A DNA stretch of 63,683 bases, counting the filler, from Licmophora abbreviata (taxonomy: Eukaryota), in NCBI GenBank assembly GCA_900291995.1. It is 11 parts of 11 records of this genome, joined end to end, with 100 filler letters (N's around TTAATTAATTAA, not from the genome) between each part and the next. Parts side by side here need not be neighbours in the genome. Positions count along the whole stretch, not along the records: positions 19,923 to 26,964 come from OLMU01003225.1; 10 more parts are not named here. One strand, written 5' to 3'. The notes beneath the pieces were generated by a model. It made no database searches. It worked only from the letters and a program-made list of their open reading frames with translations, and had not been told where the DNA came from. Made by a program: the position numbers and the translations under genes. The first letter of the stretch is position 1; each line of letters begins with the position of its first letter. Shown here piece by piece: positions 17,615-30,521 of this stretch.

Positions 17615-17949
17615 GGTTTGAAGAAAAAAACAGGTACGCTCAAATTAGTTTCCGAATACGTTTGGATGCTAAAAGAAATATGTATATATAAAAATCAGTG
17701 GTCTATTTAACCTATGATCCGTTGGGTCCCATGCCATACTCATGCATGTAGGTCCACTGTGTTCGTAACTGCAGGCAATTCGATACGTTCGACTTCAAAA
17801 GTGACGGGGCCACAATGAGATCTTCTGCGCTTGATGCATGCTGCTCCCCGCAACACGCAACACCGCCTCCTCCCCACTGCTCTGTCACAGGCGTTGACAT
17901 TGAACCTGAATACACAGTTAAACTCCGGTTTTCTCTGTAAAGATTCAGG

Positions 17950-20494
17950 ATGGAAGGAAGAACGAATGAGTTCACGGAAGAGAAGGTCGAGTTCGTGGCG
18001 GATCCATCTCACGCCGACCGATTTCTGCCTCGAGTCTCAGTGTCGAAGAAGATCAACAATGATGGTGACGTGAAGGTGGAGATTTCCGTTCGTCAGTTTC
18101 AAGCTGAGGATATGGCCCGCGTGCTTGATTTTGAGCAGGTGCCTGAGCATCCTCCGGACGGCTCCGTGCGATACTGCGAAGATGCCGGGACCGACGGACT
18201 TCGTTTTCCTGTTCGACACGTTTGTTTGCGAGGAGGATTTCTGTTTTTCTTTGACGTTCAAGATGTCGATGACGAGGCTGGTCTTTTCGAAACGGTCTAC
18301 CATGCTCCCCCGTTGGGTGTAGTTCCCCTGGAAGGCGTGTCCATTGAATTCCCACCAGGAGGACGACGCTTCTTTCGTGATCATTCTCACCACAACGACG
18401 CCCGAAATGGATACGAGCTCGTTATTCTTCACGATACAGATGATCCTAATCTGGAAACGACAAGACCTCCGATCTTTCTTGTCTTGAACGCGATGGGTCA
18501 GCGAGAAGCCTTTTCGAAAGCTCTCAAAGTTCGATCTAAGGCGAAGCAGGAAACGCGGATGAGGGCAGCAAACGTCGCCTCTTCCCGGGAACAAGCTCCA
18601 TCTTTGACCGACGAAACGCTCCCTAAACGCAGTGTACGAGGAAGAAATTCTCAGGCTTCGGCTCGCAGTCGTCTCGCTGCAGAGCGGGCCAATCGCCGTA
18701 CGAATAGCTTTGATAGCGAAGACGACGACACGGAACAAGCCATGACTGAGTTTGGCATTGAGGAGTTTTCGGAAGCGAAGTGGCTCGATGCTTTTTTTGC
18801 TCGGAATAACGACTTCGATGCCCCTGCCAAGTGTCGCGAGTTGGAAGAATGGCAGTCGAACATCAAGAGTGGGCTCAAGGGGGCCGTCAAGGAACAATAC
18901 GTTTACTTTGTCGATGCATCGCGTGAAATGACTATAATGGGGCGCGACATCAATTTTCTTAAGGAGAAGGTGGAGAAGCAGAATGAGCTCATCAAGGACA
19001 TGAAAGAGATTGATTTTGGCGTTTCCTTTGGACTCAGCGGGTACGACTCTGACGACGACGACCTCGATCCCGGCCAGATCCGTCCCGGTGGTGCTCGCAA
19101 GAGTCGACGCCAACGCGACGGTGAGGGAATGGAAGACGACCAGAGCGACGCAAGCAGCATTTCGTCCGACGAAGAGTCCAACAAATTTTCTAAGCGAAAG
19201 AAAAGAGGCAAGGTTTCTCTCCGCTCCACATCTCGGGACGAGGTACCCGTCGAAATCCCAGCATGGTTGGAAGACGTTGGAGAAGAGGTCTCCGCTTTCA
19301 TCAAGGAGTGCCGCTACACGTCCGCCACGGACCTGCTGTTCAAAGCCAAAACGGAAGTTTCAGACATTTTCAACCAGGTAGGGTCTTCCGATGCGCTATC
19401 GATTTGCGTATCCTTGTGTTCACGCGACGCATCCTCACAATAATATTGTCGCTCTTCCTGTGATCTTAGCACGACAAACTGACCGAAGATCGCCTTTCGA
19501 AGAAGCAACGAGCCGCTTTAACGGAAATAGGGCGAGGCTTAGATAAGCTTACAGAGTGGATGAGCAACCGTCTTGTAGAGGGTCTCCGGAGGAAGAATGA
19601 AGCCATGAAACAAGCGGGTAAACGCGAGCGGTCCGATCCACTTTCGCTCATGGCACCGATGGTGTCGCCCATTTGTTTGAACGACGACGCAATCCCTTTG
19701 CAGCTCTTGGTGAAGCTGGGCAAGACGCAGGAAGCTGCCACGGCATACGCTGCGAGACGCTCTCTACTCCTCATGGAGAGGTAAGTCTGAAACCGGTTCC
19801 GTTTGTCAGTGCTGCCGACGCGNNNNNNNNNNNNNNNNNNNNNNNNNNNNNNNNNNNNNNNNNNNNTTAATTAATTAANNNNNNNNNNNNNNNNNNNNNN
19901 NNNNNNNNNNNNNNNNNNNNNNCTTCAGATCTCCCAAAGGACGAAGACAGCTCCATGTTATCCGGGGCATCAAGGAACGTGCCCCCAGGAGCGCTTGCGT
20001 CGATAGTACTTTGGTGTGATTCCGAACTATCCAAGTTCTCGTCAGCATTTGGGGGCACCCGCATTCTTGGCAATTTGGCTCTGTCACCTCCGCCTCGGGG
20101 GGAATCCGGTTCTAACAGAATGGTCGGCTTCGAAGATACTGGTGACACTGGGAGCAAGGAACGATTGGTAAGTGAGACTCCTCTACGAAAGCGTGGGCTT
20201 GGTCGGATAATGGACCTCATTAGCTGACTCTTTTACTTCCTACTTCCCTTATAGAATGCGATCGATGTGGCAGCCCAGTGCGTCGATCAAGCCTTCCAGT
20301 ATGCATCTGTGAACCTTGACTCAATTGGCCTACCATTGACCCCCCGTCTCGCCGAGTACATTCGATCGCGCTTGAAAGGCTGCGAAGCGGAAGTCGCCCG
20401 AAAGTTGGATATCAGGTGGAAAGGCTACACTGTCGATTGGGAAATGGATATTATGGACAATGATATTCCCATGGATGATCATCGAGGACTATAG
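17950..20494 (+). CDS. EXO84: Exocyst subunit Exo84 with an N-terminal PH-like domain; multi-exon, interrupted by the gap at 19823-19922
   Basis: Vps51/Exo84 N-domain LKGAVKEQYVYFVDASREM; LQLLVKLG..AATAY; C-terminal AAQCVDQAFQY..LDSIGLPLTP resembles plant Exo84 AAECVQIA..LEARGL. Introns at ~19378-19469, from 19781, and ~20168-20254. Confidence 0.8.
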
Positions 20495-20585
20495 TAAGAG
20501 AATAAAACGAACAGGAAGTGACAACGACTTACGACTTTTATAGCAGGCCCCGACTCCATCGAATTGGAAGCATCGGCGCCTTTGC

Positions 20586-20957
20586 CTACAGTAGTTCACC
20601 GTCGTCATCATCGTCATAATCCCCTTGTGGAATCATTGCCATGTCTCCCAGTACAGTCTCCGCCCTGGCGCTTTCCAGCGCCAAGGCTCTTCGCTGCCTT
20701 TTGCGCCGACAACATACGAAGCATCGGTAACATACACAGAGAGCGATGACAATTACAACCGCGAGAATAACGTATCCAAATGTTTGCCATGCTTCAGTGC
20801 CGTCGTCGCCTGTGTCTAAGCCTTCAGAAGTATTGGTGGTATCGGTATTATCATCAGGGTCATCGTCAAGCCTTCGGAAGAAAGAGACGTCAGCACCTTG
20901 GACTTCAGTCCCCAAGGAGGCCATGAAAGCGAGTAACGCTATTGATATCAACGTCAT
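20586..20957 (-). CDS. 123-aa type I membrane microprotein: signal peptide, RRL motif, acidic D/T-rich luminal peptide, TM, Cys/basic tail, C-terminal DxxLL
   Basis: Translation shows MTLISIALLAFMASLG.., FFRRLDDDPDD.., FGYVILAVVIVIALCVC, CCRRKRQRR and ..DDDDDGELL*. Confidence 0.8.
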   Translation of the reverse strand: MTLISIALLAFMASLGTEVQGADVSFFRRLDDDPDDNTDTTNTSEGLDTGDDGTEAWQTFGYVILAVVIVIALCVCYRCFVCCRRKRQRRALALESARAETVLGDMAMIPQGDYDDDDDGELL

Positions 20958-21601
20958 TATCTTTTGACAGCACTATCGTCGTCAGATTCTTTCTTGAAGA
21001 GGCTCGTCGTAGAGAGGGTGCTAAACAAGCACTGCGACAGGAGTAATGACAACGGTATGAGCTCTCGCCAAGTCGCGGTCTTTTGCATCACCCACCATGG
21101 AGCATTGTGAGAGACATGCAAGAAAGGCATCAACTGAAGATGACAGAGACCTCGAGTGAATGAAAGGAGCTCGCGTCCGATATATCGGGTTGTATCTCGC
21201 TCTCTCTTAGCCTACTTTTTACCGGCGTATCATAGCACCTATCGTAGTGTGTCCGTTCGGACTTCCTACTCGCCGCAGCTTACGTAACTGTCGCCTTCAT
21301 AAGCTCGCCGCGATAATCTGAAAGCGTAGACCGGTCTCACCATTAATACTTCCGGTATTGTACCGCCTATGCAGTCATGCACTGCAGACAAAGTCGTCGT
21401 TCGTCATACCATACAATTGTGATATTCTGTAGTGCGACCTCTACTGGGCATGGTCAAACTACTGTACAGGCAAAGATTGACATTTGATCGATACTTTATC
21501 ATAATACATTCATGCACAAAGATTTCCCGAAGTATCACGGCCGACTGAACTCTGCACCGCTTGACTTTCTCGCAATAGCCCCGCACTCGCACAAGAAAAA
21601 G

Positions 21602-24600
21602 CTAGAAATTGAAATCGTCCGCGCCAGGAGCCACCGGTGCAGACGAGAAAGAAGACTCCTTAGTTTGAAGTGCGTCAGGGGCCGCTGGTGACGGAAAAGA
21701 TTCCTTGATTTGCTCGACGATCCGGTCTATACTTGCCGTCGTCTCGTCGCCGATCGCGTCCGCCGCCCGAAGTGCATCAGGAGTCGCTGGTGTCGGAAGA
21801 GATGCCTTGGTCTGCTCGACGATCCGGTTCGCACTTTCCGCTGTTCTGTCAACGATTGCGTCCGTGGCACGAGGATTGTCAGGAGCGACGGGTAACGGAA
21901 GAGATTTCTTGGTTTGCTCGACGATACGGTTTACGCTTTCCGCTGTTCTGTCAATGGCTGCGTCCATCGTACGAACAGCGTCAGGGGTCGCTGGTGATGG
22001 AAGAGATTCCTTGGTTTGCTCGAGGATCCGGTTCACACTGTCCGTTGTTCTGTCAACGATTGCGTCGATTGCCCGAAGAGCGTCAGAGGCCGAAGGTGGC
22101 GGAATAGATTCCTTGGTTTGCCCGACGATCCGGTTGACACTTTCTGTTGTTCTGTCAACGATTGCGTCTATCGCACGAAGAGCGTCAGAGGCTGACGGTG
22201 GCGGAATAGATTCCTTGGTTTGCGCGACGATCCGATTCACACTTTCTGATGTTCTGTCAACGATTGCGTCCATCGCACGAAGAGCCACCGGTGGAGGACC
22301 AGAGATCTTGGTTTGCTGGATGATCCGATCTACACTTCCCGTGGTTTTGTCAACGATGGCATCCGTCGCTCGTAGAAATTCTTGCAGACGCGGCGCGAAA
22401 GGCTGCCTGACTTGCTCGACGGCTTGATCAACTGTTTCTGTCGTTTGGACGCTGATGGTATTCGTCACCCGCAACACTTCTTCCAGTTGCTGCGGGAAAG
22501 TCTCGGTCGTCAAGAGTTCGATCAGAAGACCCGTCGTTAGCAAAACCATGAAGACTCGTCCGACCATAATTTCCGCTTGACTCAAGATTCCCTGTCCAAA
22601 ATCATGTTGGGGATCCACTTCCAAAATATCCCTATTGGCGGTCGTGTCCTCCACACTCTTTCCAGATTTTTGGTTCCAGCCTCCTGCGATGGCCGTCGAT
22701 GTTGATGTCTCAATGCTCTTCTGCTCAGTGATCGGAACCTGTGCAGGAGTACTCTCTTGCGCCGGATCTTGAATCGTCGTCTCGGGGATTGCGGCCTCCT
22801 CAATGTCCGCAAAGAAAAAGCTTTCGACTGTGGGTATGCGCTTCTTCTCTTCCATGTCCTCGATGCGAATAATCCGGTTTCTCTTGACGTCTTCTTCAGC
22901 TTGAATAGGCTTGGAAGAATTGACCTTCTGAAGGCCCCGTGTTACAGAAGGCGGAGTACTACCGACAACTGGTGACTGGACGGGATTCTTCGGAAGGTTA
23001 GCTGGAATGCTCGCTGCTGGTGGTCTTGGAGCCTTGGAAGAACTGTTCAATATGCGTTCCGAATCCTTCATCGACACGCCGCTTGATACTTTCGATGAAT
23101 TGTCATCGTTACCCCTTTGAACAATAGGAGTAGAACTGATCTTCTTAAAGCCAGGTGATAACCGCTTGGAAGAACGTGTGGTAGTACCTGCCTTCGGCGT
23201 CTGAACTGATTTCCTGTCACGATTGGCCAACTTTGTGGCTGGTGGCGATGCCGGGGGGCTGTTGGTTGGTCGGCTCACTTCAAAGGCAGGTGTCAAAGCT
23301 TTCGTTGCGGTGCCATCTGGGGACTTTGTGGGGGCGCCTGTCTTCTCCGCAACTGTGTCCCCGGCGATATCCCCCCTTTTACTATCCGAGCGACTTCCGG
23401 CCTGGATGCGCGGCGAAGCAGCATCTTCTCCCCGTCTTGACGTAGTAGCAGGCATGACCGTGCTAGCCGCTGGATTTGGAAGTGATAGGTCAACCGAGGC
23501 TACCGACCTACGGGGCGGCTTCGTCTTGTTCTCTTCAACGTTTCGCTGCGGTAGAACTGGGCGCTCGGATATGCGCTTCCAGGGACCTGTAGGCAAAACG
23601 GGCGTCTCTCTTCTAGCAGCAGCCACTCTTGGCGGAGCCGGGAGATTGCGAGAGGTGCGCTGCGTAGAAGCAGAACGTGATGGCAACGGTGGCGGTGATA
23701 CTTGGGAGACAACCGAGCCGATTGGAGGGGATTTTGATGCGTCTACCGAGGCAGTGTCGCGACGTCCTATGGTCGTTGACCAATTCTTCGCCACCCGCGG
23801 CTTCTTCATGCTCGTTAGATACGTGCTGCCGCTTCCTATCGTCTTCCGCGATGCCTTGGGCTTTCCACGAGTCCTTGGAGCTTTTCTCGCTGATGCACTT
23901 GATCCGACTTTGCGAAAGCTGCTTGCGCTTCTGGACGACCCGATTCTTCCCGTAGTGGCAGAGCCTCCTCCAAGCATGTTGCCGAACACTTCGCTTATGG
24001 CGAGGAAAGGCTCCTTCTTCACTGATCGTACATTTGACATGTTCGTTAGAGGCAGATTTTCTCTGCGTGTGCTTTCAGAGGGAGAGGCATAGTTGACAGC
24101 CTCTTCAGACTCCGTCCTAGACGTTGCTTGGGCAGATACACCATTAGACGCTGAGAGAATCGTCGCTTGCGGAGTGTTGGACGTGACCGCCGTCCCGCTA
24201 GACCAACCCCGTGACGTCGCATAAGCGCTCATACTGGAAGTAGATGTGGTTCGTCCAGTAGCGTGCTTCAACTCTCCTCTTATGGGTCGGTGTCTGACGA
24301 GGTCGCCGCCGGCATTTCGGGCATCTAGCCCTGCGGTGTCTCGGAAGCCACCATCGCCCCTAGTTGGCCTCCGCGGAGGATTCTTTTCCGCATTAGAAGG
24401 TAAGACGCGTTGCTTGGTCACAGCGCCACCCCTGAGATCATCTAGAAAGCTGCTTCTGCGAATGGTAGATGGCGGCGTATCCATCGATCGTTCGCGAGAT
24501 GATGGCGACATGCCAGACCCAGAATCTCGTGTCGAGTCCCTCAGGTTGCGCCCCTTGAACTGAGACCAATCCGTCGGATCACGAGACCGCTTCATGCTAT

Positions 24601-26851
24601 CGAGATACGAGCGTCCGCCTTCCGTCGTCGTTCTCGAGCCTCTGTATCTCCCAGTAGTCCTAGATGCAGTAGGTGAGTCGAAATCTGACCTGCCCGAATA
24701 CGTGGACCAATCAATGGCCGCACGTGGCTTCTTCATGTTATCAAGATACGTACTTCCGCTGCCGATCGTTTTTCTCGACGCCCAAGGCATCCCGCTACTC
24801 CTAGGGGGCGACCGAGCTGGTTTTCTCGAAACGCTATTGCCCATGTAACTTTCGCCGACACGGGAGTTTGTTCTTCCGCGAGTAGGATTTGAGTCTGTCA
24901 TCGGGTATCTCGAGTTGGACGATACTGAGCCCGAGCCTCTATTGGAATTTGCTGTATACTCGGACCAATCCACAGCCGCTCGCGGCTTTTTCATGTTCTT
25001 TAGGTACGTGCTGCCGGTTCCTATCGTCTTCCGAGACGCCTTGGGCCTTCTTCGGGGCTTGGGCGCTTTTCTTGCGGGATTCCAAGATCCGACACTACCC
25101 AACCCTGCATTTCCCCTTGCAGAAGAGCCTCCCCCGAATAGGTTACCGAACAGTGTACCCATTTTGTCAAAGTAGCCCTTTCTTGGTGTCGCTGTGTTGG
25201 AAGTGCTTCTTAGAACGTCATCCATCACAGATCTGCCACCAGAAGACGATCGATAATCTGAGCTTTCCCAAGACTCCGCCCTCGTCGATCGGGATGACGG
25301 TCCCATAGGAGGCACACGTGTCGGTGGTGGTGAAGCGTAGGTCGTGGGTGACGATCCGGTTGGCCAGCCCTTGGACGCTGCATAAGCGCTCATGCTAACA
25401 GCAGACGTGGTCCGTCTTGTGACGCTGTTCGGTTCTCCTTTCACGGGCTGCCTCCTGGCGGGGTCAGCCATGGTAGCCCCAGCGGTCTGCGTGGATACAG
25501 TAGCAGATCTCGACAAAGGAGGCGCATATGGCGCCGATGCTGTCATCCGAGACCTCTCTGTCGTCGCCCTAGTTCTAACCCTGCTATCATCATATCCAGT
25601 TCCCATCGACCCAGACCCAGGCGCTCCTCTACCAGGGCGGCCCTGAGCCGCTGTATTAGACGGAGGGTTGTAGGTGACCGGCGCCTTGAACTGGGACCAG
25701 TCGGGTGTTTCTACTGGCCTCTGCATGTTCATGTTGTCGAGATAGCCTGTTCCCCCTGCGGCAGCAGAGTACCCTTGGCCTCGCCTCGGCAACTGCCTCC
25801 CCTGCATGTTCATGCCACCAACGTAGTCCACACGAGCCGCTGGTCTCGACCACGCACTAGAAGGAGCAGGTGCTGCTGGAGATGCGGTGAGAGTGCTAAA
25901 AGGCCGTGGAGCCGCCAATCTCGACCAGTCCGGCGACACAACCGTGTTCGCGATATTATCAAGGTAGTTCCCGCCTGTCCCACCGGTTTGCACTCTGCCT
26001 CTTCTCGGGAACTGCCTTTGCACTGGACCGCTGCTGAGTGCGCCTAGATAATCTGCACTCGCGGGGGCAGGGGCCGTTGAAAGCGGGGTGAACGGGGCAG
26101 GCGGGGAGTAACTCGACCAATCCTTTGTCTCGGACTTCGTACCAAGACTGTAGATGTAGCCGACTCCCTTTGAACCTGGCTTCCCTCGAGGAGGTTGTTG
26201 ATTGACAATGCCATTGTTCTGACCTGCACTATAAGTGAAACCTGTGTTCAATGGCGATTGTGGGGGTAAAGATGGAAAAGTGAGAGCCCTCGTTGCCGGG
26301 CTGTCGCCTCTCGATATCAGCCAATCCGAACCGGACTGGGATCGTCCCCTGCTACCGTGGGCAGGGTGATAGCCATCCACGCCAGCAGACAGTCGTGCTG
26401 AGGTTGCATATGTAGGTGATGATTGGACACGTGAAAGTGGGGCTGCGGGAGGTCGGTCGGGGGCTGATCTCGGCGCATTCAAGAAATCGTCCGGTTGGAG
26501 AGCGTGTCCATCTTTCCAACGCGCGTTATCATTGTATCGCATATCGTAATTCGCCGCATTTCGCGTTCCTCCCGGCGGCTGCTGAAAGACGTACCCTCCG
26601 CCAGGGGTAGTAAGATAGTGGGACCGACCTTCCTCGGATTGTCTTGTTGCCAAAACATCAGTTCGAGGTCTTTCTATGGCGGCGGTCGCAGCTCGTCGGG
26701 GTAAGAAATGTGAGGGACGCCTCAAATACGGCTGAATAAACCCAGAAGAAACGCTGCTGAGCAAGTAGAAGAGGCAAGAAAGCTGCAAAATTGGAACATT
26801 GCGCCTCCTTTGTCCGTCTTGTATGCTCCCGGTAATCCTCATCATCGCCAT
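21602..26851 (-). CDS. Giant (~1750 aa) intronless low-complexity repeat protein with predicted plastid presequence, one HLIP/LHC-like TM helix and C-terminal 34-aa repeats
   Basis: 5.3-kb uninterrupted ORF. Signal-like ILQLSCLFYLLSSVSSG followed by FIQP; internal repeats; AEIMVGRVFMV...IELLT helix. Start probably at one of the ATGs at 26842-26851. Confidence 0.88.
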   Translation of the reverse strand: MAMMRITGSIQDGQRRRNVPILQLSCLFYLLSSVSSGFIQPYLRRPSHFLPRRAATAAIERPRTDVLATRQSEEGRSHYLTTPGGGYVFQQPPGGTRNAANYDMRYNDNARWKDGHALQPDDFLNAPRSAPDRPPAAPLSRVQSSPTYATSARLSAGVDGYHPAHGSRGRSQSGSDWLISRGDSPATRALTFPSLPPQSPLNTGFTYSAGQNNGIVNQQPPRGKPGSKGVGYIYSLGTKSETKDWSSYSPPAPFTPLSTAPAPASADYLGALSSGPVQRQFPRRGRVQTGGTGGNYLDNIANTVVSPDWSRLAAPRPFSTLTASPAAPAPSSAWSRPAARVDYVGGMNMQGRQLPRRGQGYSAAAGGTGYLDNMNMQRPVETPDWSQFKAPVTYNPPSNTAAQGRPGRGAPGSGSMGTGYDDSRVRTRATTERSRMTASAPYAPPLSRSATVSTQTAGATMADPARRQPVKGEPNSVTRRTTSAVSMSAYAASKGWPTGSSPTTYASPPPTRVPPMGPSSRSTRAESWESSDYRSSSGGRSVMDDVLRSTSNTATPRKGYFDKMGTLFGNLFGGGSSARGNAGLGSVGSWNPARKAPKPRRRPKASRKTIGTGSTYLKNMKKPRAAVDWSEYTANSNRGSGSVSSNSRYPMTDSNPTRGRTNSRVGESYMGNSVSRKPARSPPRSSGMPWASRKTIGSGSTYLDNMKKPRAAIDWSTYSGRSDFDSPTASRTTGRYRGSRTTTEGGRSYLDSMKRSRDPTDWSQFKGRNLRDSTRDSGSGMSPSSRERSMDTPPSTIRRSSFLDDLRGGAVTKQRVLPSNAEKNPPRRPTRGDGGFRDTAGLDARNAGGDLVRHRPIRGELKHATGRTTSTSSMSAYATSRGWSSGTAVTSNTPQATILSASNGVSAQATSRTESEEAVNYASPSESTRRENLPLTNMSNVRSVKKEPFLAISEVFGNMLGGGSATTGRIGSSRSASSFRKVGSSASARKAPRTRGKPKASRKTIGSGSTYLTSMKKPRVAKNWSTTIGRRDTASVDASKSPPIGSVVSQVSPPPLPSRSASTQRTSRNLPAPPRVAAARRETPVLPTGPWKRISERPVLPQRNVEENKTKPPRRSVASVDLSLPNPAASTVMPATTSRRGEDAASPRIQAGSRSDSKRGDIAGDTVAEKTGAPTKSPDGTATKALTPAFEVSRPTNSPPASPPATKLANRDRKSVQTPKAGTTTRSSKRLSPGFKKISSTPIVQRGNDDNSSKVSSGVSMKDSERILNSSSKAPRPPAASIPANLPKNPVQSPVVGSTPPSVTRGLQKVNSSKPIQAEEDVKRNRIIRIEDMEEKKRIPTVESFFFADIEEAAIPETTIQDPAQESTPAQVPITEQKSIETSTSTAIAGGWNQKSGKSVEDTTANRDILEVDPQHDFGQGILSQAEIMVGRVFMVLLTTGLLIELLTTETFPQQLEEVLRVTNTISVQTTETVDQAVEQVRQPFAPRLQEFLRATDAIVDKTTGSVDRIIQQTKISGPPPVALRAMDAIVDRTSESVNRIVAQTKESIPPPSASDALRAIDAIVDRTTESVNRIVGQTKESIPPPSASDALRAIDAIVDRTTDSVNRILEQTKESLPSPATPDAVRTMDAAIDRTAESVNRIVEQTKKSLPLPVAPDNPRATDAIVDRTAESANRIVEQTKASLPTPATPDALRAADAIGDETTASIDRIVEQIKESFPSPAAPDALQTKESSFSSAPVAPGADDFNF
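21675..22480 (-). repeat. Coding tandem repeat, ~102-bp (34-aa) unit, 7 clear copies + 1 degenerate
   Basis: Unit ALRAIDAIVDRTTESVNRIVxQTKESxPxPxxxD; the DNA core GTTCTGTCAACGATTGCGTC recurs at about 102-nt spacing. Confidence 0.95.
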
Positions 26852-27617
26852 CGTCGCTCTACAGAACACGAACGTCATCATCATCTTCTTTCGCCTCTTT
26901 ATGTCGTGACAGCAAATTCTTCTCTTGATGAACTTCAATGATGATCAGCTGCGACGTCAGCTGCNNNNNNNNNNNNNNNNNNNNNNNNNNNNNNNNNNNN
27001 NNNNNNNNTTAATTAATTAANNNNNNNNNNNNNNNNNNNNNNNNNNNNNNNNNNNNNNNNNNNNTAACCCAAGCGTTTGCGCTATAGTTTTATACAAGGA
27101 CTAATAGAGTTGACATATTGGATGGACCATGAGTAGTGAATGCGCGCACGCACTTCGTGCGTATCAAGATATTCGAGAAGATGACATCATTCGAACGCCC
27201 GAATGGTCATCGATCGACTGACTCACTCGACTAGATTGCAACATCAACTCTTGCCCGATCAGACTATCGGATTGCAGTCCAAGCAAGTCCTATGAGCGAT
27301 GGCTGGAGGCTTGTGATGCTAGACAATTTAAATTACTGCTCTTTACTCTAGACGTGAAGCGCCAAGGGTTGCGAAACGTAAAAATTATGACTTATTCTGG
27401 AACCAGACTCTCGCTCGCACCTCCTCCTAGCATCTCCTCATAGCTAGAGCAGCAAATAGATTTGGACTCGTTGAGCCATGGTACCGGTAGGTTGGTTATG
27501 AACAGGGCCACGAAAGACTCAGTCGGGCTCCACTTCATTACAATTCGAAAATTGGAATGACTTACCCCTCTCCCTCTCCCTCATACTAGCCACAGCCCCA
27601 ACGCATGACACGAAATA

Positions 27618-29244: not shown

Positions 29245-29985
29245 TTACAAGTCGTCCTGTAAATTGAGTACAAGGTGCTCTTCGCCGGGCTTGAACGCAG
29301 GGCGCCCCAAGTAAGGACAACTCGCGCAACGGAAGGCGTCACCTAGGGCGCAATTTCCGCAAGAGCTAGTGGGCACCTGCTTGGGCTTTGACTCTGTTCC
29401 GCCCCCCGCTTCGAGCTCAGCGCGTCCGCAGGAGCAGTTGTCACATGCCTTGCGACCTCCACAGTCGTCCGTGGCAGCGCGAGTCTCCGACACGGCCGGA
29501 GGTGGAGCCAGAAGGCCGCTTCCTTCTTCCGACAACAATCCATCCTCGTCGATTAGATCAGTGTCAGTGTCCTCCAAGTTAACCAATACTTTCTTGAGAG
29601 TGACGGGGGCGGCACTGGGAGCTATTTCTTCCTTAGTCGCCGTAAGAACACGTGTGCCGTCGGCCTCGCGCCGCTCGGAGCCTCCGACAAGGCCCGCGAG
29701 GAGAAAGGATGTATGAATCGGCTGCAAGTTGGGAGACTCGCCATTTGACGTCTCCACGCGCACGCAAACTGTCGCATTTGGACGCATCAGCGATGCCCAA
29801 GCCGCCAAATCAGTGGGGTCGTACAGTGAATCCAGCTCGGCCGCAGCCACGATGATCTCAAGAGACTCAACCGACGAGGGAGTCAGTCCCTCTCTCGCCG
29901 CCACCAAACTTTTCGATGACTTGGCCTCATCCTCACCTTCACTAGCAGCGCGAAGGCGCAAGGAAACGCGGTTGCTCGTCGTCAT
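29245..29985 (-). CDS. DRE2: Anamorsin/Dre2 (CIAPIN1), cytosolic Fe-S assembly electron carrier
   Basis: LIDEDGLL linker; [11 protein letters not shown] and [29 protein letters not shown]e-S motifs. Confidence 0.96.
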
Positions 29986-30521
29986 GGTTGTTCCTTGTGT
30001 GTGTTGCAGTTGTCGCGAATGCGAACCTCGGCCTCATCGGGCAACACCACCATCGACCATCGACGCAGAGAACTTCTGCTGGAGCGAGTGACAGACTGTC
30101 TGAAGAACAGAAAAGAACGTGTGGCTTCACCCGGATTTTAAGCACNNNNNNNNNNNNNNNNNNNNNNNNNNNNNNNNNNNNNNNNNNNNTTAATTAATTA
30201 ANNNNNNNNNNNNNNNNNNNNNNNNNNNNNNNNNNNNNNNNNNNNAATTGGAATTGGAACATGCTATTATGTATCATAGCATGAGGCCGGCGTCTAGCAA
30301 GGTTCATGATGCAACAAGCCCGGCATCCAGCACTTGCATCTGTACCTTCCAGTTACAGTACAGTTTAAGCATTGAAGAGGCCGTTGGATGAAGAGAGTTA
30401 TGTGATGCGTCGACGATACGCTCAAACCATCAGAAGCGTAAGCTAGCGTTTGGTCGGCTAGCATAGAGTTTCAAGAGGGAAAACTAGAGCTGTAATCTAA
30501 CAGATTCTTAACTGGCATTTA

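Follow-up and report, generated by a model that had tools for sequence, protein, structure and literature searches.

In a 63,683-nucleotide stretch of DNA from the diatom Licmophora abbreviata (assembly GCA_900291995.1; the stretch is hereafter the window) we found a long gene whose product carries seven copies of a bipartite motif, YLxxM-x7-DWS, in a basic low-complexity arm that leads into a single transmembrane helix. Our best reading, which we hold tentatively, is that this seven-motif protein is a membrane-anchored multivalent tether between the pyrenoid matrix and the thylakoid. The window consists of contigs joined by N-spacers, from an assembly of 29.2 Mb in 7,734 contigs; positions below are window positions on the minus strand unless another contig or strand is named. 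The gene is an open reading frame (ORF) of 1780 codons, stop to stop and without interruption, at 21602..26944 in contig OLMU01003225.1 (window 19923-26964), with its 5' side near the contig end at 26964. If the Met codon at 26840-26842 is the start, the protein has about 1,746 aa, but the start is uncertain because several further Met codons (26882-26884, 26849-26851 and 26843-26845) precede the presequence and the contig ends 125 bases upstream. A signal-peptide-like hydrophobic stretch ending SSG|F (26735..26791; hydropathy 1.64) is, from its cleavage pattern judged by eye, a putative ASAFAP-type bipartite plastid presequence, and the protein would be nucleus-encoded and plastid-targeted. 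Between this stretch and the transmembrane helix lie about 1,400 low-complexity residues, predicted from composition to be disordered (the motif region has S 16, R 11, G 10 and T 10 percent and a net charge of +69); the helix is followed by seven 34-aa amphipathic repeats and a DDFNF end. A Pfam search with the whole protein gave nothing better than E 0.16, and an ESM Atlas search with it gave no result. Four runs yielded 19 short contigs of at least 99% identity, none of which spans the gene and which have no bearing on transcription.

The preliminary description of this DNA had listed seven motif peptides, and all seven are present in one minus-strand frame. Counted from the N-terminal side, with scores against a family profile described below, they are copy 1 (YIYSL-x7-DWS, 26114..26158, preceded by the family's PPRGKP linker; 16.7 bits), copy 2 (YLDNI-x7-DWS, 25922-25966, within a full three-part unit of DYLxAL helix, basic linker and motif at 25919..26053; 31.3 bits), copy 3 (YLDNM-x9-DWS, 25694..25744; 18.7 bits), copy 4 (YLKNM-x7-DWS, 24962..25006; 15.9 bits), copy 5 (YLDNM-x7-DWS, 24704..24748; 13.5 bits), copy 6 (YLDSM-x7-DWS, 24563..24607; 12.7 bits) and copy 7 (YLTSM-x7-NWS, 23777..23821; 11.8 bits). 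The gap from the M, I or L to [DN]WS is 7 residues in six copies and 9 in one, and the longer ASRKTIGxGSTYL prefix described for three copies is found on copies 4, 5 and 7. A looser pattern (gap 6-10) matched seven times in the region and not once in any of 20,000 residue shuffles, which speaks for non-randomness and not for function, as the pattern was set after the sequence had been seen. Copies 4, 5 and 7, compared over 26 codons, have synonymous and replacement differences of 13:3, 7:6 and 12:5, mostly at third positions. Because synonymous changes outnumber replacements in these copies, the motif peptide has been kept by selection, and on this codon evidence we regard the seven copies as under purifying selection. 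An AF2 model of copy 5, built with a 7-row alignment, has YLDNM in a helix and the W in a helical turn (mean pLDDT 70.7).

The preliminary description was incomplete: the motif forms the second half of a unit of about 45 aa, and further degenerate copies are present. Three decayed copies scored 5.8-9.0 bits on the family profile: a degenerate front half (26525..26617; 9.0 bits), a unit with GSMGTGY (25547..25645; 5.8 bits) and a unit that ends in GYFDKM, matches the pattern GY[LF]DxM and is without the DWS half (25154..25258; 6.0 bits). Local alignment also revealed an internal duplication of about 195 aa (score 326), with one arm at 24923..25507, holding an MSAYAxxxGW element, an FG element and copy 4, and the other at 23744..24337, ending in copy 7. 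The two MSAYAxxxGW elements (25361-25462 and 24197-24310) share the M-x7-x-W register with the main motif and could be copies of it that have diverged, with profile scores of about 0 bits; MSSF/MSAF elements in ORFs of another contig, C5630, are related to them.

Beyond the window, 1.84 billion representatives were searched with a profile of the seven copies, which matched 9 proteins, 7 of them with several YLD[SNQ]M-x7-DWS copies; P0008 and P0009 were unrelated simple repeats and were dropped before motifs were counted. None of the seven motif-bearing relatives is informatively named, their spacers are unlike those of the window protein, and six are net acidic (-14 to -75). The 7-residue gap occurs at 20 of their 24 YL sites followed by W, in relatives picked by a profile that has this gap itself. 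At the N-terminus, P0002 and P0010 have a plastid-type signal followed by a YL-rich helical domain, and P0003-P0007 contain segments that by eye are lipoyl-like (Pfam E 0.06 for P0004). Since it is multi-copy in seven of nine profile matches, among different spacers and domain contexts, the motif behaves like a portable tag; this recurrence, together with the synonymous excess, bears out the earlier proposal that the copies are selectively maintained. In P0003-P0007, P0017 and P0018 the motif array lies between lipoyl-like segments, a second architecture with the same tag, and at the matching lipoyl-like exon of this genome (L059) no motif was found within the 2 kb examined. Pattern scans of metagenomes gave 599 and 119 matches, none confirmed, an ESM Atlas search with P0007 gave no usable match, and a PDB sequence search with the motif region gave chance matches only.

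Within the genome, the repeat unit is common to the seven-motif gene and four other loci. Two paralogues, ORFs of 1,055 and 628 aa, repeat a unit made of DYLxALGGG, a basic PPRGKPK linker and GYLDNM, sometimes followed by AWS, and this unit finds the seven-motif gene at E 3.4e-14 genome-wide, plus two more loci. The family profile was built from 21 units of 8 relatives with the seven-motif protein left out (3 units are from P0007, itself found with that protein's profile), and it scored all seven copies at 11.8-31.3 bits, 105.6 in total, against a best of 4.2 bits in 300 shuffles. Genome-wide, 14 of the 16 matches to GY[LF]DxM fall in five family contigs, as against 2 control matches. By homology of its repeat unit, then, the seven-motif protein belongs to an unnamed diatom YL-repeat family. 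Several members have an N-terminal YL-rich helical domain; among the pairwise alignments listed, no block aligned there, and the seven-motif protein has no such N-terminal YL sites.

It is the relatives that point to the pyrenoid. DPC2 (diatom pyrenoid component 2, Pfam PF25195) is described as a matrix-localised, Rubisco-interacting network hub (bioRxiv 10.1101/2023.10.26.564148). P0010, P0002 and P0007 match PF25195 at E 2.8e-11, 7.8e-10 and 2.9e-5, and a search of the genome with the profile gave 6 matches in two genes, the 1,055-aa and 628-aa paralogues, at 50.7 and 29.2 bits (E 2.6e-13 and 1.3e-6). The relatives' matches cover about profile positions 20-101 of 105 and lie in YL-repeat regions; two neighbouring disordered ORFs without YL motifs gave no DPC2 match.

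The family loci have further features of their own. Contig C5891 (1806-6678, minus) carries three adjacent genes on one strand: a 405-codon YL-repeat ORF, the 628-codon paralogue with a drifted anchor helix and, adjoining, an intact one-helix gene like those of the light-harvesting complex (LHC). Contig C5630 (3-9443, minus) holds a cluster of three plastid-type disordered ORFs: the 1,055-aa paralogue with 7 family units, one of 538 aa with MxAF/MSGF repeats, and one of at least 955 aa in which YGMNGD is repeated many times and KWSP occurs once. Two more loci are on C1685 (19-1512) and C1170 (145-1954), both minus; in the C1685 ORF a plastid-type signal is accompanied by many PAWx elements, and its C-terminal block, which looks conserved, ends in YLDSLGW. 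Two other candidate loci, L004 and L009, proved to be unrelated genes.

The transmembrane helix, absent from the preliminary description, lies with a following short helix at 22445..22591 and is homologous to the C-terminal helix of the one-helix LHC-like (OHP2-type) proteins of diatoms, as judged from reciprocal genome matches, shuffle tests and a profile. Searched against this genome, the anchor block found a 179-codon ORF (E 0.0016) and the helix of the 628-aa paralogue (E 0.1). The 179-codon ORF encodes a one-helix LHC-like protein, and in the PDB its helix matches LHC chains, RedCAP among them (best E 1.2e-4); searched back, it found only itself and the seven-motif anchor (E 0.0024, 46% over 46 aa). 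Ungapped, the two have 21 identities in 53 positions, a score reached by 0 of 3000 shuffles. A database search gave, among 1,084 candidates, 117 proteins of 111-255 aa that are 40-52% identical to the anchor helix; two are labelled 'High light inducible protein', and none of the 117 is a long fusion. The named relatives of the one-helix protein are diatom sequences. The layout of the 117, a single C-terminal helix plus a short hydrophobic stretch, suggests that they are OHP2-type; OHP2 is nuclear-encoded in diatoms (PMC3750529). Their profile, found with a query that included the seven-motif anchor helix, scored the anchor at 30.5 bits over positions 135-183, against a best of 4.0 bits in 1,000 shuffles.

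The anchor retains E, R, M, GLL, E, T, P, Q, EE and LR of these proteins (GLLxE, PxQxEExLR), but ExxNxR has become ExxVxR, where N is present in 117 of 117 relatives. In LIL3, N177A and N177D in ExxNxR are colourless, and N177D still folds (PMC8617258). Because the chlorophyll ligand N is here V, the anchor is probably pigment-free. OHP2-type proteins and the seven-motif protein thus have in common the C-terminal helix and the short hydrophobic helix behind it, whereas the seven-motif protein is without an intact chlorophyll-binding ExxNxR and has its anchor fused between an arm of 1,400 aa and a tail of 300 aa. The helices of the 628-aa paralogue and P0021 match the seven-motif anchor (1 and 0 of 3000 shuffles reach their scores) and not OHP directly, so it is the seven-motif gene that links these drifted helices to OHP. 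The helix of P0022, whose score was reached by 279 of 3000 shuffles, does not align with the family anchor and was not counted as homologous to it. The one-helix OHP gene is the next gene downstream of the 628-aa paralogue, on the same strand, a neighbourhood that fits an origin of the anchor by local duplication of an OHP gene, and the trio on C5891 looks like the birthplace of the fusion.

An anchor of this ancestry could also belong to a scaffold on the thylakoid at which photosystem II is built or repaired; the helix would pair with OHP or HLIP and the motif copies, as stickers, would recruit stromal enzymes or translation factors. OHP2-type proteins are described as acting with HCF244/Ycf39 in D1 synthesis, and the E and R of a putative dimerisation motif (PMC8617258) are kept in the anchor. 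Set against this, only the C-terminal 49 of about 183 profile positions match, the conserved N-terminal part of OHP being absent; four invariant residues of the helix (N, A, W and G) are replaced, the helices of the paralogues have diverged beyond a direct OHP match, and an intact OHP gene is present elsewhere in the genome. We consider this role unlikely, if worth keeping in view.

It is rather unlikely, too, that the stickers self-associate or bind the family's YL-rich helical domain, giving a plastid condensate or membrane coat without Rubisco, with an Arg-rich arm that may bind RNA or nucleoids. Besides its net charge of +69, the motif region has 19 RG pairs and is rich in S, R and G; the paralogues carry YL-rich helical domains and up to 21 YL sites, and Tyr stickers drive homotypic condensation of PYCO1, the Rubisco linker of Phaeodactylum tricornutum (PMC10288592). 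The net acidic character of six of the seven motif-bearing database proteins, however, implies that the motif needs no basic context, and its conserved fixed gap suggests a folded partner surface.

In the C-terminal tail a 34-aa repeat, made of an amphipathic helix and then a proline-rich turn, occurs seven times (21668..22372; TRF period 102, 6.1 copies, 81% matches), with hydrophobic moments of 0.52-0.69. Single-sequence AF2 of the C-terminal 366 aa was uninformative (pLDDT 41), and no 34-aa repeats were found in other genes of this genome at E below 0.1. Faint Pfam-type matches to phasin, apolipoprotein, XopH and VapB15 were below cut-off and were rejected. The terminal DDFNF (21605..21619) resembles, by eye, the DDWAF, DRWAF and DDWEF ends of three relatives. 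Seven amphipathic helices would suit a lipid-body or membrane-shaping protein whose repeats bind plastoglobules, lipid droplets or curved membrane while the stickers recruit metabolic enzymes, and there are faint matches to phasin, apolipophorin-III, apolipoprotein and perilipin (E 0.008-0.28). These matches, however, fall well short of the cut-off and are what any amphipathic helix tends to give, a paralogue with the same anchor is without the repeats, and the OHP2 topology would place the repeats in the lumen, where they are predicted to lie if that topology is kept. A role of this kind is improbable.

The preliminary description had likened the WS core to the KWSP of PYCO1, and this part of its interpretation, unlike the selective maintenance of the copies, was not borne out: KWSP and xWSP both occur 0 times in the protein, D precedes W in six of seven copies and P follows S in none. 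Six of the seven do agree with a relaxed pattern for the large-subunit helix of PYCO1, [DE]W[GAS]x-hydrophobic, which was drawn up with PMC10288592 in hand, and there is no exact EW[GA]SM; the DWS half therefore seems closer to that helix than to KWSP. The PYCO1 authors note that variants of the large-subunit helix occur in other proteins (PMC10288592). PYCO1's GTGYNP is absent, GTGY (2) and YNP (1) occurring separately, and the one GSMGTGY run is identical over 7 residues to the run before PYCO1's YNP sticker, possibly by chance in a G/S-rich region. Both are basic low-complexity repeat proteins with Tyr and Trp stickers and a plastid-type presequence (putative here): PYCO1 (Phatr3_J49957) has a pI of 10.03 (PMC10288592), and the seven-motif region is likewise basic. 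The seven-motif protein differs in being three times longer, in its bipartite motif and in having a transmembrane anchor and C-terminal amphipathic repeats.

We also looked at Rubisco itself. This genome has a plastid rbcL-rbcS pair, beside a gene that we take to be rps2. All seven RbcL pocket residues of the PYCO1 site are present in its RbcL, which is weak evidence as RbcL is very conserved, and a complex prediction of RbcL, RbcS and copy 5 scored 0.13 against a mark of 0.34 and weighs neither way. That the protein is a PYCO1-type linker, with its WS core oligomerising in the RbcS central channel as KWSP does, had been the first suggestion, and a basic disordered repeat protein with seven WS cores and single GSMGTGY and YNP runs like a Tyr sticker could be taken to favour it. 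The KWSPRGGS tetrad, however, uses P478 and a GGS groove (PMC10288592), which are absent here along with KWSP, xWSP and GTGYNP; in this genome RbcS has Ser rather than Asn at position 105, if the numbering is shared; and PYCO1 was characterised as a soluble matrix linker, whereas the seven-motif protein has a membrane helix. We think this very improbable. Least credible of all is a functionless ORF, whether from neutral repeat expansion, mis-assembly or lack of expression. The fragmented assembly, the uncertain start codon and the finding of no orthologue among 7,999 candidates of near length (959-3,054 aa; query residues 220-1030) might speak for it, but against it stand 1,780 open codons, the synonymous excess in the motifs, their conservation in other organisms and the concentration of GY[LF]DxM in family contigs.

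Together, these observations are most consistent with a tether between matrix and membrane. After plastid import, which we infer, the single helix derived from an OHP2-type protein would anchor the protein in the thylakoid. The N-terminal arm of about 1,400 disordered, basic residues would face the stroma and show the seven YLxxM-x7-DWS stickers as well as the decayed copies, and the amphipathic repeats would lie in the lumen; this arrangement follows from the OHP2 topology, with the N-terminus in the stroma (bioRxiv 10.1101/2022.08.29.505686), if it is kept. Each sticker would present two short helical elements at a fixed distance and bind the pyrenoid matrix, where its partner may be Rubisco, most likely at the large-subunit pocket of PYCO1's EW[GA]SM helix, or a DPC2-type network. 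The net effect would be to hold the matrix on the thylakoid, as proposed for RBMP1/2 of Chlamydomonas, putative matrix-to-thylakoid tethers with a shared Rubisco-binding motif (PMC7673724).

The likeness to RBMP1/2 rests on architecture, a transmembrane segment joined to a disordered arm in which a short Trp motif recurs, and on the reuse of one motif in proteins with different domains; no sequence homology was seen. The Chlamydomonas motif, given as [DN]W[RK]xx[LIVA] (PMC7673724), has 0 matches in the seven-motif protein, the Rubisco is of red type, and an LHC-like helix takes the place of a channel as anchor. With DPC2 (described from Thalassiosira pseudonana) the contrast is that the relatives match PF25195 and the seven-motif protein does not, and that DPC2 is localised to the matrix whereas the seven-motif protein has a membrane helix. 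The protein is hence not a member of the PYCO1, DPC2, OHP2 or Chlamydomonas motif family, each comparison coming out negative in a defining feature.

Several observations weigh against a pyrenoid tether. The link to the pyrenoid is transitive: all DPC2 matches of the relatives are below the PF25195 gathering score of 70 bits, the seven-motif protein and 6 sub-regions of it gave no match to the DPC2 profile, and short YL helices in low-complexity sequence may alone explain the matches seen. In relatives not selected for W, a W lies within 14 residues at 7 of 24 YL sites and at a gap of 7 at 2 of 24, for which reason we regard YLDxM as the family core and DWS as an optional half, fixed in all seven copies. 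The copies are unevenly spaced, with intervals of 64, 74, 246, 86, 47 and 262 aa between successive ones. At full-database scale the anchor's OHP profile match is E 0.1, and the helix alone gave no LHC family match in Pfam, NCBIfam or the PDB (in the PDB, chance matches only). Finally, the peptide table of a P. tricornutum Rubisco pull-down contains one match to YLD, in an unrelated peptide, and none to DWS or YLSAL, which is weak evidence from another species.

A few other genes in the window were noted. An ordinary anamorsin/DRE2 (CIAPIN1) gene lies at 29245-30033 on the minus strand (Pfam E 1e-16). Downstream of the seven-motif gene, at 20586-20972 (minus), is a small single-pass membrane protein with a Cys/Arg-rich juxtamembrane stretch and sub-threshold Pfam matches only. 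On the plus strand, ORFs at 17941-19870 are ones we take to be Exo84-like, an exocyst subunit, with a PH-like N-terminus; Pfam gave no such match.

The open-licence literature yielded no description of the motif, of a diatom tether, of an OHP-derived anchor or of an LHC-like fusion. The surprising parts are the OHP-derived anchor and the DPC2-linked motif family. It is possible, if on balance doubtful, that YLDxM(-x7-DWS) is an address motif shared with DPC2 and the diatom counterpart of the Chlamydomonas Rubisco-binding motif, that the tether arose as a motif arm fused to a duplicated OHP2-type helix without its chlorophyll ligand, and that this gene, with the most ancestral form of the anchor, shows how a whole family of pyrenoid scaffolds with membrane anchors came about. 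Three things here can be tested with peptides and tagging: the motif, which is specific and 15 residues long; the gene family, which a profile links to a pyrenoid protein of known location; and the candidate membrane anchor. Whatever the link to the pyrenoid, it would be an unusual fate for a member of this superfamily if an LHC-like pigment helix has been reused as the pigment-free anchor of a 1,400-residue disordered arm.

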